A stretch of 32,000 nt of DNA from Candidatus Jordarchaeales archaeon (GCA_038858525.1 JAWCFL010000002.1:59987-91986); one strand, 5' to 3'; shown: positions 3,417-22,291, counted from the first letter of the stretch. The notes: a model not told the origin generated them from the sequence alone. Translations and numbers: made by a program.

Positions 3417-4386
3417 ATGGTTATCGCATCTGCGCCTGGTAAAGTGATATTATTTCGGTGAGCATGCTGTTGTTTATGGGGAGCCGGCAGTTGTAGTTGC
3501 TGTTAATAAGCGAGCATTCGCAGAAGCACTACCGCTCTCAGGCAATAAGATCCGTATTTTCTCCCGCGAATACCAGTCGCGAGTTGAATTCGCATTAGAT
3601 AAGGAGCCCACGCAAATCGGAAATTTCAAGCCAATCTGGACAATTATTTCTCGCCTAAAAGAAGATTATGGGTTGAGCTATGGTTTTGAGTTGAAAATTT
3701 GGTCGGAAATTCCCCCGGGAGCCGGCATGGGATCATCCGCCGCTGTTGCTGTAGCGGCAACCGTAGCCATAAGTTCGCTTCAAGGAATAACTCTCTCAAA
3801 GAGAGAAGTTTACGATATTTCATTTGAAGCTGAAAAGGACGTGCACGGAACACCGTCAGGTGTAGACAACGCCATAGCTACGCATGGGTCTGCCATTATT
3901 TTTAGGCGTGGACAAGTAAAGAGGATTAAGTTGGACGGCGATGTGCCCCTTGTGGTGGGAGACACTGGCGTTAGACGGAACACTGGAGAGTGGGTTGCAA
4001 AGGTGCGTGAGAGGAGGGAAAAGTGTAAGGAAACGGTTGACCCCATAATAAGGCTTATAGGTAAGATATCGATGAGGGGATTGCAACTTTTAAGGAAAGG
4101 GTGCCTTAGAGAGCTAGGAGAGCTAATGGACATAAATCAGGGCCTTCTCGACGCTTTAGGAGTCTCAACGCTAGCTTTAAGCAACCTGATATTTGCAGCT
4201 AGAGGAGCCGGAGCTTATGGAGCTAAGCTAACAGGCGCTGGAGGAGGAGGATGCATGATCGCGTTGACGTCAAGGGATAAAAGCAGTGTTGTGGCTGGCG
4301 CGATAAGAGACGCAGGTGGGACCCCAATAATAACCGGGGTCTCTATGGAGGGAGTTAAGATCGAAACAGAATTTAAAGAGGCGTAG
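3417..4386 (+). pseudogene. mvk: Mevalonate kinase with a single +1 frameshift (real lesion or sequencing error)
   Basis: ATG 3417 gives MVIASAPGKVIL, then TTT CGG TGA. Removing one T from 3453-3455 gives FGEHAVVYGEPA, which continues without a stop into the ORF with PPGAGMGSSAA, HGTPSGVD and KLTGAGGGGC (GHMP kinase motifs). Confidence 0.93.
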
Positions 4387-8387: not shown

Positions 8388-8510
8388 TCTTGTCCACCCT
8401 TTCTCTGAGATTCTCACTTGTCAAGGGTAAGGATAAAAAGATTTTTAGAAGATTAGCGAAACGTGGAAAGGTGGAGATGTGAGCTAGCCCACAAAAATGA
8501 GGTGAGCTTG

Positions 8511-10454
8511 TTGAGGAGCGAAGAGGAAGAAATCGACTGGAAAGCTGTAGGGTTTAAGGCTGGCTTAGAAATACATCAGGAGTTACTTACTACACGCAAG
8601 CTTTTCTGTCGTTGCCCTCCTAACCTCAGGAATGATCCGCCGCACTTTACTGTTAAGAGGTTTTTCCGCCCAGTTCTTGGGGAGATGGGGGAATTTGACC
8701 CTGCTATGCTGGCGGAGTACGAGAAAGGTAAGACCGTTATTTATGAGGGCTATTATGATACCACGTGCACATATGAGGTAGACGAAACGTACATGTAGCT
8801 TGCATGTACGCGTCAAACTCCGCCATTCGAGATATCTGATGAAGCCCTCGAGATAGGGCTGGAGCTGGTGTTGCTTCTGAAGGCTAATGTCGTTGATGAG
8901 CTTCATGTTTGTCGTAAGAATTACCTGGACGGCTCCGTCCCCTGCGGTTTCCAACGAACGCTGATTATAGGGCTAAATGGTAGCATACCGGTGAACGGGA
9001 AGGAGGTCCCGATAGAAACGATCTGTATAGAGGAGGATGCTGCACGCAAGATTAGAGAGGAGAGGAATACTGTTTATTACAGGCTTGACAGGCTTGGTAT
9101 ACCTCTGGTGGAGATAGTTACAGCGCCCTGCATAGAGACGCCGGAAGAGCTTATGGAGGCAGCCTTCAGAATAGGACTCCTACTTAGGAGCACGGGGAAG
9201 GTGAGGCGAGGCATTGGAACCATAAGGCAGGACGTGAATGTCAGCGTGAGGGACGGGGCACGAGTTGAAATTAAGGGCGTGCAGAAGCTGGAGTGGCTTC
9301 CGAAGCTAGCTAGAAACGAGGTTATACGGCAGCTTTCCCTTATCAGAATAAAGGATGAGCTTGCACGTAGAGGCGTTAGGGAGGAGGATTTGAAGCTGGA
9401 CGTTAAGGACGTGACGGAAGTGTTTAGGAAAACGCGTAGTAGATTACTCAAGCAGAGAGGAGATGAAAGGGTTTTGGCGGTTCGTCTTCCGAAGTTTTCA
9501 GGCATACTCGGAATTGAAGTTCAGCCGGGTAAGCGTTTCGGTAAGGAGATCGCTGAAAAAGTACATGCCGTTACTGGTTTGGCAGGTATAATTCATTCTG
9601 ACGAGAACCTTGAGGAGTATGGGATAAGCGCTGAAGAAATAAGTGAGCTACGCTTGACTTTGGGAGTTAACGAGGGAGACGCTTTTGTGCTCGTAAAAGC
9701 ACCTAGGGAGACTGGAGAAAGAGCTCTAGAGATCGTAGTTGAGAGGGCGCGCCAGTCTTTGAGGGGGGTGCCGAACGAGACGAGGCGTGCCTTGGAGAAT
9801 GGAAACAGCGAGTTTCTCAGGGAGCTTCATGGAGGGGCACGCCTTTATCCTGATACTGATACGCCTCCGATAAGGCTTAACCCAGAATTGATAGATAGCG
9901 TTGCGAGGAAGCTTCCAGAGTACCCATGGAACATTAAAGATAAACTTGTTAAAGAGTACGGCATAAGTGAGGAGTTCGCTGAAAAGCTCATCCTTGAGGG
10001 AAAGGTTTTCCTCTTCAGAGAGATCGTCGATGAGTACAGAGTTGACCCAGTCTTTGTTGCTTCTGTTCTTCTGCAAACTCTTAAGGCCTTGGAAAGGGAA
10101 GGAGTAAAAGTAGAAGAGGTTACGGAGGAGGAGCTTAAGGAAGTTTTTAGGCAACTTTCAGAGAACAGGATAGCTAAGGAGGCTATAGAGCCTTTAATCG
10201 CTAAGCTTGCGGAGAAACGTATTAGCGTAGAGGAGGCTTTGAAGGAGCTGGGCATAAGTCCTCTCTCCGAGAGAGAGCTAGAGGAGCTGGTGGGCAGTAT
10301 TGTGAGCGAAAACATAGACATTGTTAAGGAGAGAGGTGAGAGGGCTTTTAGCCCTTTGATGGGTATGATCATGAAGCAGGTGAGAGGAAGAATAGATGGG
10401 AGCAAGGTGGCTGAAGTCCTTAAAAGGAAAATTAGAGAGGGGGCCGGCGGATGA
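8511..10454 (+). CDS. gatE: Glu-tRNA(Gln) amidotransferase subunit E, interrupted by a 30-nt candidate intron
   Basis: GFKAGLEIHQ, KLFCRCP, GFQRT, LDRLGIPLVEI, GIGTIRQDVNVS, GGARLYPDTD. ORFs 8463-8798 and 8868-10454 share a frame and are split by TAG 8796 inside the insert. Spliced length 637 aa from TTG 8511 (SD GAGGTGA 8499-8505). Confidence 0.95.
8787..8816 (+). other. Candidate bulge-helix-bulge (archaeal-type) mRNA intron in gatE
   Basis: GACG(8781-84) AAA(8785-87) CGTACATG(8788-95) TAGCTTG CATGTACG(8803-10) CGTC(8811-14) AAA(8815-17): 4-bp central helix, two 3-nt bulges, 8-10 bp intron stem. Cuts after nt 2 of each bulge give GAC GAA ACT CCG CCA (DETPP). Confidence 0.85.
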
Positions 10455-11809
10455 GTGGCGATGACCAGTTAAAAGGCTATCATGGGTTTGCGAGGAAAAA
10501 ATTAGAGGGTGCAGGAGTAAAAATCTGGAGTATCGTGAGAATAATTAATCCTGACGCTACCTATGAGGGGATTCTTCTTCCGAGAAGCGAGCTCGGAGAC
10601 GAGGAACATGTGGTGTTAAAGCTTAAGACAGGGTACAACGTAGGCGTGAAAATTACGGAGGAAACAGTAATCGAGGAGGTTGGATATAGCCCAGGACATT
10701 ATGCTTTGCCTGAAAGAAAAGTAGAGTTTAAGCCGGGGAAGCCGCTTGTATCCCTGATAGGAACAGGTGGGACTGTTGCTAGCAGGCTGGACTATAGGAC
10801 TGGAGCAGTTATACCTGCCTTCACACCACAGGAGCTTTTCAGCGCCGTTCCAGAACTCGAGGAGATATGTAACCTCGAAACAGTCTCTCTCTTCGAAATT
10901 TTCTCTGAGGACATGCAACCAGAGTACTGGGTGCAGATAGCTAAAAAAGTGGCGGAGGAAATCAATAGAGGAGTCGACGGCGTAATAGTTGCCCATGGAA
11001 CAGACACTATGCACTTCACCTCAGCGGCTCTATCATTTATGCTTAAGGACCTCACTGTTCCCGTAGTCTTGGTTGGCAGCCAAAGAAGCAGTGATAGGCC
11101 TTCAAGCGACGCCGCAATAAACCTGATCTCGTCCGCGATTGTAGCTTCAAGAAGTGACATAGCTGAGGTTGTTGTGTGCATGCATGGAAGCAGTAGTGAC
11201 GACTATAACTTGATCCATAGAGGAACGAGAGTCAGAAAAATGCACACAAGCAGGAGAGACGCCTTCAGAACAATCGGGGACATACCTTTGGGCGTCGTCG
11301 CTAACGGAAAAATACGAATGTTGAGAAACGACTACAAACGTAGAAGTGATCATGGAAAGGTGACGGTAGACTCAAAAATAGACCCAAAAGTGGTTTTACT
11401 CTACACTTACCCGGGAATGCAACCCGACATCATAGAACACATCGTGAAGACAGGTTACCATGGAATAGTTCTTGCAGGTACAGGACTCGGGCATTGCCCC
11501 AAAACGATAATACCACAGATTGAAAGAGCAGTAAAAGATGGAATTGCTGTCGCCATGACGTCGCAATGCCTTTACGGGTTCGTGGGAATGAACGTCTACG
11601 AGAGAGGACGCGACTTACTCAAAATAGGCGTCATACCATGCGGCAACATGCTGCCGGAGACAGCATACGTAAAACTAGTCTACGTTCTAGGTCATACCAG
11701 AGACGCTGATGAGGTAAGGGAGATGATGACAAGTAACATGTGCGGGGAAATAACAAGTGGGGAGCCATATAACGCGTACCTGATCCTTCAGGGAGTAGAG
11801 GAATCATAA
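10451..11809 (+). CDS. gatD: Glu-tRNA(Gln) amidotransferase subunit D (asparaginase-like)
   Basis: KLKTGYNVG, TGGTVASRLDYRTGAV, HGTDTMHFT, GSQRSSDRPSSDA, RKMHTSRRDAF; ATGA overlap with gatE stop. Confidence 0.97.
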   Translation: MSGDDQLKGYHGFARKKLEGAGVKIWSIVRIINPDATYEGILLPRSELGDEEHVVLKLKTGYNVGVKITEETVIEEVGYSPGHYALPERKVEFKPGKPLVSLIGTGGTVASRLDYRTGAVIPAFTPQELFSAVPELEEICNLETVSLFEIFSEDMQPEYWVQIAKKVAEEINRGVDGVIVAHGTDTMHFTSAALSFMLKDLTVPVVLVGSQRSSDRPSSDAAINLISSAIVASRSDIAEVVVCMHGSSSDDYNLIHRGTRVRKMHTSRRDAFRTIGDIPLGVVANGKIRMLRNDYKRRSDHGKVTVDSKIDPKVVLLYTYPGMQPDIIEHIVKTGYHGIVLAGTGLGHCPKTIIPQIERAVKDGIAVAMTSQCLYGFVGMNVYERGRDLLKIGVIPCGNMLPETAYVKLVYVLGHTRDADEVREMMTSNMCGEITSGEPYNAYLILQGVEES

Positions 11810-18706: not shown

Positions 18707-21700
18707 TCACGCTGCAACTTCCCCTCCACCCCCATACTGCTCTTCTAACTGTTTTAGATTCGCATCGATGGAGAATACACAGGATGAACCATTCATGTAT
18801 GTAACACCGATTATCTGGTCTGCCTTTTTCATTGTAGCCTTTCTCAGCGACACAACGATGAACTGCGACGTTTTTGACAGCTCTTTTATTAAGTCTGCTA
18901 CCCTACTGGAGTTTTGCTCATCGAGAAATGCGTCGATCTCATCCATAACATAGAATGGAGCGGGGTGATACTGTTGTATGGCGAATATGAGCGCAAGTGA
19001 CGTGATCGATTTTTCGCCACCTGACATTAACTCTAACCGCTTGACCTCCTTCCCTGCCGGGGAAGCCTCTATGATCACGCCACCCGAGAAGGGGTCTATC
19101 GGGTTTTCTAGGACAAAACGCGCGCTACCACCAGGGGATAACGAGGAAAAGATTTGTTTGAAGTTTTTCTCTATGGCGTAGAAAGTTGAGAGGAAAGTGT
19201 TTCTTTTGTCTTTCTCAACCTCTTTTATGAAGCTCAGAATACTCTCTCTTTCCTCGATAAGTTTATTCCTCTTACTTATAAGCTCCTCATACCTCTTCCT
19301 TTCTTTCTCGTAAAGTTCTATTGCAAGCATGTTCACCGGCTCAAGACTCTTCTTTTCCTTCTCCTTAGACTTGATCATTTCGTCAAGCTCTCTGAAATCC
19401 ACAGAGTCGATGTCTTCGAAGGAGTATGAGCTGTAATCCTCAGCTTGCTTCTTCAGCTCGTTTAATGTTTCTTCCAAAAAGGACTTCTCAACTTCAGCTC
19501 CTCTCGCCTCCAACTCTAATTCCTTAACTTTTTCACTTGTTTTTTCTAGCTCGACGGAAAGATTAGAAACCTCCTTCTCAAGCTTCTCCCGCTCCGTCCT
19601 AATCTTCACCAGCTTATCTTCAAGCTCTGCCCTTCTTCTCTCTAAAGACGTTACTTCGCTCATCAACATATCCAAATCTTCTTTGGTAGCATTCAAGTCC
19701 GATTCTACGTTATCCATTTCAACCTTAACTTTTGAAAGTTCTCTCTCCTTCTCTCTGAGTAATCCCATAAGGTGCTCTCCTATCAAAGTCTGTTTCTCCG
19801 CTATCTTGACTTCTAGCTGACCAAGCTTGTCTTTAAGAGTTAGCATCTCTTTCTCTAATTCTCTTATCTGGTTTTGAAGAGCTGCAGTCTTTGACATTGA
19901 AGCAGCTTCTTCTAAGCGCGATATGCTCTCATTTGTTAGAGAAATACGAGAACGCACACCATATAGTAATTCTACAACCTTTCTCAGCTCTTCCTCCTTT
20001 TTGGCGTTCTCCTCAACGTACCTTTTTACCTCTTCCTCGAGCTCGTTAACTTCTCCTTCTAAGCTAGAAATTCTTTCATTTAGCTCCCTAATTCTGGCCT
20101 CATGAACGTAGACTTCTCTCTCAGCCTGCTTGAGCTCGCGTGTAATGTTTTGCTTGCGAGTAACTAAGCTCTTGATGCTCATCATAATGGACGCTCTTAG
20201 TTCCTCCATGCCTTTCAGTTCATTTTCTAACTTAGGTAGTTCCCCCGGCTCTTGAAGAAAGACAGCCTGCCTCTTTTGAATATGCCCTCCAACCATTACA
20301 CCTGACGTTTCAAGAATCTCTCCTTCAAGAGTCACTTTCCTTGCTTTAACGTTATGCAGCCGGCGCGCCACATCTAAACCTTTAACAATTATCGTGTTGC
20401 CGAAAACGTATTCAAAAGCAGGCCTAAACTTTTCGTCGAACTCAATGAGGTCAACGGCAGCTCCGACCACTCCCTTATCGTCTTCAACTACTGGCCGCGG
20501 CCTAGAACGTATCAGATTCAATGGGATAAAAGTTGCCCGCCCCAACCCGTTTTTCTTAAGGAAATTTATGCATTCAACAGCCACTTCATCATTCTCCACT
20601 ACGATGTAGTTAAGGCGTTGTCCTGCTGCAGCCTCAAGAGCCAGCGCATATTCTTCTCTAGTTTTGCCAAGCTCCGCTATAGTGCCATAAATTCCCTTTA
20701 AAACCCCCTTGTCACGTAGCTTTAAGATCTCATAGACTGCCGACTGAGACCTAAGTATACGCTCCCTTTCCTCGTTTATTGCCCTTATTCGGATTATTTC
20801 TTCCCTTAACTTTTGAAGTAAAGCCTCAACTTCCCTCAGCTCCCGCCCCTTCCTCCCCTCTTCAGCCTCAACTTCCCTCAGCTCGCTGGAAAGCGCCTTT
20901 TCTCTCTCTTCTTCCTTCCTCTTTTCTTCTCCCAGCAGGGCTAGCTCTCTTTTCATACTCTCGAGAGCATTTCTTAACCCATCTAACCTTTTCTTCTTCA
21001 TTAAAAGACTGGCCTGACCATTTGCAAGTTCTCTTTCAATGATCTTCTTTTCAGCCTCGAGCCGCGCCTCTTCCTTCCTTAACCCGTCAAGCTCTACTCT
21101 AAAACGATCCAATTCCTCCCTAACTTTCACATACTCCGTATCCACACTTGCCGCCTGCTCGTATAATGCTTCTAGGACGCGCTGCTTAGCATCAGTCTCT
21201 TCACTCAGCCTCTTACGTTCTGCTAAAGCCTCTTCCAGTGCCCTACTTTCCTCCATCAGCCTGTTCTTAATGGATTCTATCTCTCTCTTCAGCGATTCAA
21301 AACGATTAAGTCTCTCCGCCAACTCCTTCTCCTTAAAACTCACAGTAATCTTCTTCTCGGAAGCCGCCTTCCTTTTCTCATTCAGCTCTGACACTAAATT
21401 TCGGATATTCTCCTCAACAAGTGCAATTTCCGCATCTAAAAGCCTAGCGTCCTCAACAGCTTTCTGTTTCCTATCCTGAAGATCCCCCATCTTATTTTGG
21501 AGAACCCTTATTTTCTCTCTCTTCTCGTTTATTTCCTCCATCACCCTTCTCAACTTCTCGCTTTCCCTTTTCAGCTGAGCAAGGCAAAACTTAGCTCTAA
21601 GCGCTCTTATCTCCTCATCCAGCTGCTTATACTTGAGCGCCCCCTCCCTCTCCCTAGCCAACCTCTCCACTATGCTCTGCACTTCTCTAACTTGGGCAAG

Positions 21701-22291
21701 GTTCTCCCTTAGGTTCTGCTCTGCAACCTCCAGCTCCTTTTGCGCTTTCTCCTTCTTCTCATCAAAAGAAGCTATTCCAGCTATGTCTTCGAAAAGCCTC
21801 CTTATTTCGACAGGACCCTTACGTATCACCTCCAAAATTTCTCCTTGAGGAATCATGTTGTAACCGTCAGGGCTTATGCCTGCAGCCTCCAACAAATCAA
21901 CTATCTGACTTCTCGACACTACGCGTCCGTTAAGCCTATACACTCCCTTTCCATCCAAGTCTATTTGACGCGTTATCACCACGGTATCCGCGTCTACGGG
22001 AATACGCCTATCCACGTTGTCGAGATAGAGACTGACCGTAGCGTACTTAGCGGCTTTTCCGCCTCCACCTTTAGAGTAAAATATAAGGTCAGAGAAGCTT
22101 CCCGCTCTCATAGACTTGGCGCTCAGCATGCCTATACCAAAGCGAATAGCGTCGAGAAGATTACTTTTGCCTGACCCGTTAGGCCCAACTACAACTACAA
22201 ATCCCTTCGAGAAGTTAACTGTAACCTTACGATTACCAAACGACTTGAAGCCTCTAATCACTATTTTTTTGATGTGAACCGTGGCCACCAC
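18707..22291 (-). CDS. smc: Chromosome segregation protein SMC
   Basis: Walker A GPNGSGKSN, hinge GRATFIPL and RKVTLEGE, signature MSGGEKS, Walker B/D-loop MDEIDAFLD, long coiled coils. Confidence 0.98.
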   Translation of the reverse strand: MVATVHIKKIVIRGFKSFGNRKVTVNFSKGFVVVVGPNGSGKSNLLDAIRFGIGMLSAKSMRAGSFSDLIFYSKGGGGKAAKYATVSLYLDNVDRRIPVDADTVVITRQIDLDGKGVYRLNGRVVSRSQIVDLLEAAGISPDGYNMIPQGEILEVIRKGPVEIRRLFEDIAGIASFDEKKEKAQKELEVAEQNLRENLAQVREVQSIVERLAREREGALKYKQLDEEIRALRAKFCLAQLKRESEKLRRVMEEINEKREKIRVLQNKMGDLQDRKQKAVEDARLLDAEIALVEENIRNLVSELNEKRKAASEKKITVSFKEKELAERLNRFESLKREIESIKNRLMEESRALEEALAERKRLSEETDAKQRVLEALYEQAASVDTEYVKVREELDRFRVELDGLRKEEARLEAEKKIIERELANGQASLLMKKKRLDGLRNALESMKRELALLGEEKRKEEEREKALSSELREVEAEEGRKGRELREVEALLQKLREEIIRIRAINEERERILRSQSAVYEILKLRDKGVLKGIYGTIAELGKTREEYALALEAAAGQRLNYIVVENDEVAVECINFLKKNGLGRATFIPLNLIRSRPRPVVEDDKGVVGAAVDLIEFDEKFRPAFEYVFGNTIIVKGLDVARRLHNVKARKVTLEGEILETSGVMVGGHIQKRQAVFLQEPGELPKLENELKGMEELRASIMMSIKSLVTRKQNITRELKQAEREVYVHEARIRELNERISSLEGEVNELEEEVKRYVEENAKKEEELRKVVELLYGVRSRISLTNESISRLEEAASMSKTAALQNQIRELEKEMLTLKDKLGQLEVKIAEKQTLIGEHLMGLLREKERELSKVKVEMDNVESDLNATKEDLDMLMSEVTSLERRRAELEDKLVKIRTEREKLEKEVSNLSVELEKTSEKVKELELEARGAEVEKSFLEETLNELKKQAEDYSSYSFEDIDSVDFRELDEMIKSKEKEKKSLEPVNMLAIELYEKERKRYEELISKRNKLIEERESILSFIKEVEKDKRNTFLSTFYAIEKNFKQIFSSLSPGGSARFVLENPIDPFSGGVIIEASPAGKEVKRLELMSGGEKSITSLALIFAIQQYHPAPFYVMDEIDAFLDEQNSSRVADLIKELSKTSQFIVVSLRKATMKKADQIIGVTYMNGSSCVFSIDANLKQLEEQYGGGGEVAA

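Follow-up and report, generated by a model that had tools for sequence, protein, structure and literature searches.

Analysis of gatE within a 32,000-nucleotide (nt) stretch of DNA from Candidatus Jordarchaeales archaeon (GCA_038858525.1 JAWCFL010000002.1:59987-91986; hereafter the window) revealed that the gene is interrupted at positions 8787-8816 by what is, in our judgement, highly likely to be a functional mRNA intron of the bulge-helix-bulge (BHB) type, of the relaxed HBh' kind, in the Asgard archaeon Candidatus Jordarchaeum. The gatE mRNA would then very probably have to be spliced before GatE, part of the enzyme that makes Gln-tRNA, is produced. The window comes from an assembly of 63 contigs and 2.09 Mb with a completeness of 92.7%, referred to here as G000.

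On the plus strand, the gatE reading frame opens at GTG 8463, is halted by a TAG at 8796-8798 and reopens in the same frame to run to TGA 10452-10454. The likelier start is TTG 8511 (or 8508), which has a Shine-Dalgarno-like GAGGTG (8499-8504) in front of it. The gene divides as follows:

8511..8786, plus strand: gatE exon 1, matching positions 2-37 of the Pfam GatB_N profile and residues 1-83 of the Methanothermobacter chain 2d6f_C
8787..8816, plus strand: predicted 30-nt BHB-type (relaxed HBh') mini-intron with the in-frame TAG at 8796-8798, filling a 10-residue gap
8817..10454, plus strand: gatE exon 2, ending with TGA 10452-10454, matching Pfam GatB_N 47-276, GAD and GatB_Yqey and residues 84-617 of 2d6f_C

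Both halves of the gene thus fall in the GatB_N catalytic domain. Deletion of 8787-8816 joins ...TYEVDE to TPPFEIS... and gives a product of 637 amino acids (aa) from TTG 8511, or of 653 aa from GTG 8463, with YEVDETPPFEISDEALEIG as the predicted peptide across the splice junction. When translated through the insert, GatE aligned with 2d6f_C from end to end, the sole gap being 10 residues at the insert, where the window has EVDE(TYMxLACTRQ)TPP and 2d6f_C passes from EADE to EPP. The predicted excision fits the solved GatE structures and the intron-free relatives exactly, in keeping with the original prediction, made from this DNA alone, that removing these 30 nt would yield an uninterrupted 637-aa GatE.

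Comparison with relatives revealed that the insert is a fixed property of the order. In all 11 species-level genomes sampled from Candidatus Jordarchaeum and its Freyarchaeia-like relatives (G000-G010), an insert occupies one and the same codon boundary, between GAY GAA and ACN CCN, with lengths as follows:

G000, own genome: 30 nt
G001, same genus: 29 nt
G002, same genus: 31 nt
G003, same genus: 35 nt
G004, same family: 30 nt
G005-G010, second family: 30 nt each

All stops reported within the gatE genes of these 11 genomes fall in the insert or at the frameshift that it causes. Outside the order, 15 of 19 more distant loci of the same phylum were checked by tblastn, and the boundary was without an insert in all 15; five intron-free junctions (G016, G018, G022, G036 and G050) read GAY GAR ACN CCN with nothing in between. 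A single uninterrupted gatE match was found in most of 400 Asgard genomes surveyed. Further families showed two matches in the phylum-wide table, the second of which is gatB in G012 and G023. In one genome of family f19, G048, the gatE halves lie at the ends of two contigs (G048:C112:48-311 and G048:C46:5892-7475) with the break near the same region, which may be an assembly break. The gatE intron is old, earlier than the split of the order's two families.

The minimum free energy (MFE) fold of 8765-8836 reproduced all pairings, the loop and the bulges of the structure below, so that both the reading frame and the fold agree with the 30-nt, TAG-bearing insert and the RNA structure that had been described:

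8775..8777, plus strand: GAG, weak outer pairing with CUC 8818-8820, not conserved
8781..8784, plus strand: exon strand of the central 4-bp helix, GACG (the Asp codon and the G of the Glu codon), pairing with 8811-8814
8785..8787, plus strand: 5' bulge AAA with the predicted cut after 8786, invariant in 11 sequences
8788..8810, plus strand: intron hairpin h', with a 10-bp stem (8788-8797/8801-8810) and a GCU loop (8798-8800), supported by the MFE fold and by covariation
8811..8814, plus strand: intron strand of the central helix, CGUC, which is CAUC or CAUU where the exon has GAUG
8815..8817, plus strand: 3' bulge or loop AAA with the predicted cut after 8816, invariant in 11 sequences

The inner stem pairs CGUACAUGUA (8788-8797) with UGCAUGUACG (8801-8810), one U.G pair included, and the 5' AAA forms a true 3-nt bulge between the central helix and this stem. 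A scan of 8600-9000 against Rfam gave no match. Covariation was counted in 11 aligned sequences, 10 of them distinct, and compared with 500 shuffles and with partners slid by 1-3 columns. In the named structure 91% of cells were paired, as against 13-49% in the slid-partner controls, and changes on both sides of a pair occurred at 8 pairs (21 cells), a count matched by none of the 500 shuffles. The central helix was paired in 97.5% of cells across the 10 distinct sequences, with C-G replaced by U-A in step with the synonymous Asp codons GAC and GAU: one family combines exon GAC-G with intron CGUC, and the other family exon GAU-G with intron CAUC or CAUU. The inner stem was paired in 94% of cells, with both-side changes at 7 of its 10 pairs, and the stems of G002 and of the second family differ strongly from the others, while the AAA triplets at both cut sites are unchanged in all 11 sequences. 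In sum, the beyond-chance signal for this predicted structure is comparative, lying in the shared site and the covariation and not in the fold energy. The alignment of relatives, proposed originally as a check, thereby turned out in favor of the intron.

The varying lengths also bear on whether the ribosome could cope with the insert, either by reading through the TAG, for example with pyrrolysine and a 10-residue insertion, or by hopping over it as in T4 gene 60. Such a bypass would suit an insert that is 30 nt long and in frame in G000, with a hairpin directly after the last exon codon, and stop-codon recoding has been reported in Jordarchaeia (PMC9723677). However, read-through is excluded because congeners carry inserts of 29, 31 and 35 nt, through which it is impossible, and PylS was not found in G000 at its 92.7% completeness (best match 32.5 bits, cut-off 178). 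Hopping would meet a mismatch between the take-off codon GAA and the landing codon CAA, and would not require the covarying 4-bp helix between exon and intron. We regard a ribosomal solution of either sort as extremely unlikely.

The insert itself is present in independent data. Contigs from three sequencing runs of three studies span 8787-8816 without gaps and with at most one base difference, which refutes the idea of an assembly artefact that had been raised along with the original prediction. A mobile palindromic element, resembling a miniature inverted-repeat transposable element, would account for the palindromic insert and for the AAAC on either flank. Nevertheless, a search of G000 that allowed up to 5 mismatches found no second copy of the 30-mer, and blastn-short gave no match longer than 13 nt; the flanking C forms the first pair of the stem and covaries with its partner (U-A in G002); and the insert, fixed throughout the order, is ancient. 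Taken together, artefact and mobile element are vanishingly unlikely as explanations.

Substitution patterns point to a gene that is in use. The ratio of nonsynonymous to synonymous substitutions (dN/dS, Nei-Gojobori) of gatE against three congeners was 0.11, 0.06 and 0.04, with exon 1 alone giving similar values, and between families, where synonymous sites are saturated, both gatE exons are still intact, which indicates strong purifying selection on both. A decaying copy or pseudogene, with the insert as the disabling lesion and Gln-tRNA made in another way such as by GatCAB, would explain the in-frame TAG in G000 and the frameshift in three congeners, and GatB is indeed encoded in G000. Yet these ratios extend over both exons, all 11 genomes keep the gene intact in the face of synonymous saturation, stops are confined to the insert, and the insert covaries in a way that preserves its structure. 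Moreover, G000 has a single copy of gatE, with no second gatE found, and no glutaminyl-tRNA synthetase (GlnRS) above the cut-off: the one match, presumably the glutamyl-tRNA synthetase (GluRS), reached 211 bits where the cut-off is 426. The selection and covariation data bring the pseudogene explanation close to refuted, and we find it barely conceivable. The original suggestion that a functional intron is likelier than a pseudogene has therefore held up, as has its expectation for gatE copy number and GlnRS.

Public databases record the gene in truncated form. In NCBI, JGI and Logan, the entries for Jordarchaeales and Freyrarchaeum (P0003-P0013) are 487-564 aa long, cover exon 2 only and bear the name GatE, while GatE in other Asgard archaea has about 638-645 aa. 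The public GatE of the order being truncated, the intron is currently unannotated, and automated annotation does misread the gene, as had been anticipated. The protein database search returned no full-length close relative (about 637-653 aa), and hence no hint of an intron-less allele or of an assembled spliced transcript. These same gene calls, which give the order only the C-terminal protein, would agree with synthesis of two separate polypeptides, an N-terminal one of about 95 aa and a C-terminal one of about 530 aa, that assemble without RNA splicing; a GTG at 8868 could begin a 528-aa product. In contrast, all relatives conserve the protein sequence of the 17 residues from the junction to that GTG (TPPFEISDEALEIGLEL), and no start codon occurs among the in-frame codons immediately before these residues (CTT GCA TGT ACG CGT CAA). 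Because no in-frame start codon precedes them, these residues can be translated only as a continuation of exon 1. Two polypeptides would also leave the covarying helix between insert and exon unexplained, and we hold this explanation to be highly unlikely.

For splicing of the gatE transcript we propose the following pathway. Exon GACG would pair with intron CGUC, with the intron hairpin stacking on this helix, and the fold would expose one AAA triplet as a true 3-nt bulge and a second within an internal loop. An (alpha-beta)2 EndA would cut behind the second A of each triplet, and RtcB would ligate the exons to GACGAA/ACUCCG (the slash marking the join), the mRNA for the uninterrupted 637-aa GatE (...TYEVDE-TPPFEIS...). 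We infer both cleavage and ligation from the predicted structure and the enzymes that the genome encodes. G000 has two EndA paralogs. The alpha subunit (191 aa; G000:C3, L053:1474-2049, minus strand) has the catalytic His and is similar to the catalytic subunit of the heterotetrameric Aeropyrum pernix enzyme (1.6e-48), with a gap-free alignment to A. pernix alpha through the Crenarchaea-specific loop segment; the second paralog (198 aa; beta, G000:C43, L054:1189-1785) is without the catalytic His, as expected for a structural subunit. RtcB is also encoded (601 bits). Asgard archaea have an (alpha-beta)2 EndA with an L1 loop that confers a broad substrate range (PMC5829648), and by analogy the two-subunit EndA of G000 is predicted to have broad specificity. 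The genome thus appears to hold what had been thought necessary, a broad-specificity endonuclease, here a two-subunit EndA with the loop region, together with RtcB.

Several observations weigh against the proposed intron. The 3' AAA (8815-8817) lies opposite the unpaired GUA 8778-8780, forming a 3x3 internal loop, and the outer GAG/CUC pairing was paired in 73% of cells, showed zero covariation and is disrupted in 3-5 of the 10 distinct sequences. The fold energy is unremarkable by itself (z = -1.57), 15 of 200 shuffles folding equally well. With an unconserved outer helix and a 3' site outside any closed 3-nt bulge, recognition rests on the broad specificity predicted for EndA, and the genes for cutting and joining (the EndA pair and RtcB) are present, the enzymes being known here from those genes. 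No RNA contig crosses the junction either: the sole metatranscriptome contig near the site, a near-identical one of 271 nt in run X15, stops at 8779 and so falls 7 nt short of the 5' site, coverage of 8808-9009 in that run was nil, and for L014, a Freyarchaeia-like relative, the listing had no RNA run. All genomes compared are metagenome assemblies. Lastly, GatB is present, and GatCAB might conceivably serve as an alternative route to Gln-tRNA. The unconserved outer helix makes the motif one of the relaxed HBh' kind, and the predicted structure fits the relaxed HBh'/BHL class and not strict hBHBh', as was foreseen when the exon-exon helix was first described as imperfect.

A second gatE intron was observed in another Asgard family. 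In G021 (family f13), gatE has a putative 41-nt intron (L034:469-509) located inside the Asp codon, 5 nt before the site used in Jordarchaeum, with a central helix AGGC/GCCU, bulges AGA/AGA and a full outer helix; its excision gives ...LEADEEPP.... Two more genomes of this family, G031 and G041 (L035 and L036), have comparable inserts at the G021 site when read by eye, for which a strict script gave no call. The f13 intron suggests either independent gain or intron sliding near the same spot. Introns have been reported in 92-95% of the tRNA genes of Atabeyarchaeia and Freyarchaeia (PMC11291895), and extreme tRNA-intron loads have been described in these lineages (PMC11291895; bioRxiv 10.64898/2026.10.13.758758), with protein-gene introns unmentioned in both papers. 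Our literature search likewise found Asgard tRNA-intron papers and none on mRNA introns or gatE. ARAGORN returned only 11 tRNA genes in G000, 8 of them with introns; most tRNA genes of this genome are probably too interrupted for ARAGORN to parse.

Other protein genes of G000 appear to contain similar mini-introns. Candidates were drawn from a scan of the genome for the motif together with the reading frame, and were then checked singly:

aEF-2, 29 nt, L057:619-647 (G000:C4:81118-81146): GTP_EFTU profile 2-80 then 82-187, joining ...LIDTPGHV to DFTGHV...
AIRS/SelD-like gene, 30 nt, L058:458-487 (G000:C2:6357-6386): AIRS profile 2-48 then 49-100
FAD oxidase, 24 nt, L059:689-712 (G000:C13:45688-45711): bulges AAA/AAA, FAD_binding_4 profile 1-80 then 93-139
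cbf5, 30 nt, L055:1547-1576 (G000:C1:177182-177211): central helix CACU/GGUG, bulges AGA/AAA, excision giving GTLDPKVTG
pcm-like gene, 31 nt, G000:C1:145116-145146, minus strand: joining ...GQTISAP to HMCVLM...VLEVGAGSG..., identified by motif only

In the FAD oxidase, the FAD_binding_4 match restarts at residue 12 of exon 2, which is compatible with continuity. Application of the predicted gatE cut rule restores these five genes as well. In aEF-2, the intron is carried by G000, G001 and G002 with compensatory changes in the stem; the congener G003 lacks it, as do G004 and all but one of the six second-family genomes. The G003 DNA (CAC GTA GAC TTT ACC) equals the predicted exon-exon join codon by codon, bar one synonymous difference. 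In the aEF-2 of the remaining second-family genome, G005 (L072, G005:C414), a much larger insert of about 223 nt lies between ...LIDTPG and FTGNV..., two codons upstream of the Jordarchaeum site.

Not all candidates from the scan had this character. The candidate on contig C21 proved to be two adjacent genes, Brix and Pcc1 (Pfam), and Pfam continuity was absent at C3:105835-105865 and C45:11319-11346. Within the window, motif matches at 2759-2779, 4345-4363, 21699-21713, 2056-2075 and 9120-9136 were chance-like. A genome-wide census combining the BHB motif, joining of open reading frames and coding potential gave totals that were not above those of frame-shifted decoys; the signal was swamped because junctions between neighboring genes contribute to it, and only compact introns (up to 45 nt) were in excess, with 33 against 12-25 in decoys. 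As the decoy-calibrated totals show no excess, we state no total number of mRNA introns. The genome-wide scan that had been suggested thus brought five further genes and no usable count. It also alters one earlier proposal, that glutamine decoding is tied to tRNA splicing: the gatE intron on which it was built is supported, but the proposal is too narrow, since several mRNA mini-introns are present with no special link to glutamine. The next gene downstream of gatE in the window is:

10451..11809, plus strand: gatD (Pfam GatD_N, Asparaginase, Asparaginase_C), whose ATG at 10451 overlaps the gatE stop (ATGA)

That unspliced gatE mRNA might also lower GatD translation, as had been suggested, is speculation.

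The proposed splicing resembles three known systems. The cbf5 pre-mRNA intron of Crenarchaeota, reportedly described by Watanabe in 2002 and Yoshinari in 2006, is also a short BHB-type intron in a conserved protein motif (in Aeropyrum, Sulfolobales and Desulfurococcales), with cutting expected from a hetero-oligomeric EndA, joining by a tRNA ligase, and misannotation by gene callers. The Asgard case differs in that gatE holds one of at least six such putative introns in one genome, and in that crenarchaeal cbf5 splicing was shown experimentally, whereas that of gatE is predicted from the sequence. In eukaryotes, HAC1/XBP1 mRNA is cut at stem-loops by IRE1 and rejoined by a tRNA ligase (RtcB), removal of the short intron shifting the frame. 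The likeness lies in a non-spliceosomal endonuclease and a tRNA ligase acting on protein-coding mRNA, while the endonuclease and the motif are different ones, and regulation by stress is a feature of the IRE1 system. The third system is that of the relaxed HBh'/BHL tRNA introns of Thermoproteota and Asgard archaea, with a 4-bp helix, a hairpin and an imperfect outer helix; their 3-nt bulges are cut after the second base, as is proposed for the AAA triplets of gatE. The gatE substrate differs from them in being an mRNA, in which codons make up the exon strand of the helix, so that the protein constrains this strand and the intron strand has to match it. Such relaxed tRNA introns require an EndA with an L1/CSL loop (PMC5829648). 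According to Yokobori 2009 (PMC2738675), cbf5 is the only gene with confirmed archaeal pre-mRNA splicing.

Several essential genes of one Asgard genome appear to need tRNA-type mRNA splicing. Going further, we think it fairly probable that Jordarchaeia and, independently of them, another intron-rich Asgard lineage use the tRNA enzymes for mRNA splicing as a routine and obligatory step for many essential genes (GatE, aEF-2, Cbf5, SelD-like, PCM and possibly dozens more). Gain and loss of introns would occur at the species level, because the aEF-2 intron is found in three congeners and is missing in the fourth. If this is true, the Asgard lineage would be the first prokaryotes known with genome-wide splicing of protein genes. 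Confirmation of the gatE intron would in turn mean that the closest prokaryotic relatives of eukaryotes need tRNA-type splicing for the Gln-tRNA enzyme and, in the same genome, for aEF-2, which would bear on the origin, persistence and tolerance of intervening sequences in protein genes before the spliceosome. The use of conserved codons as the exon side of the recognition helix would lock the intron into its coding site. Pathway reconstructions and marker-gene sets for these archaea would be affected as well, and gene callers would need a BHB-aware step.

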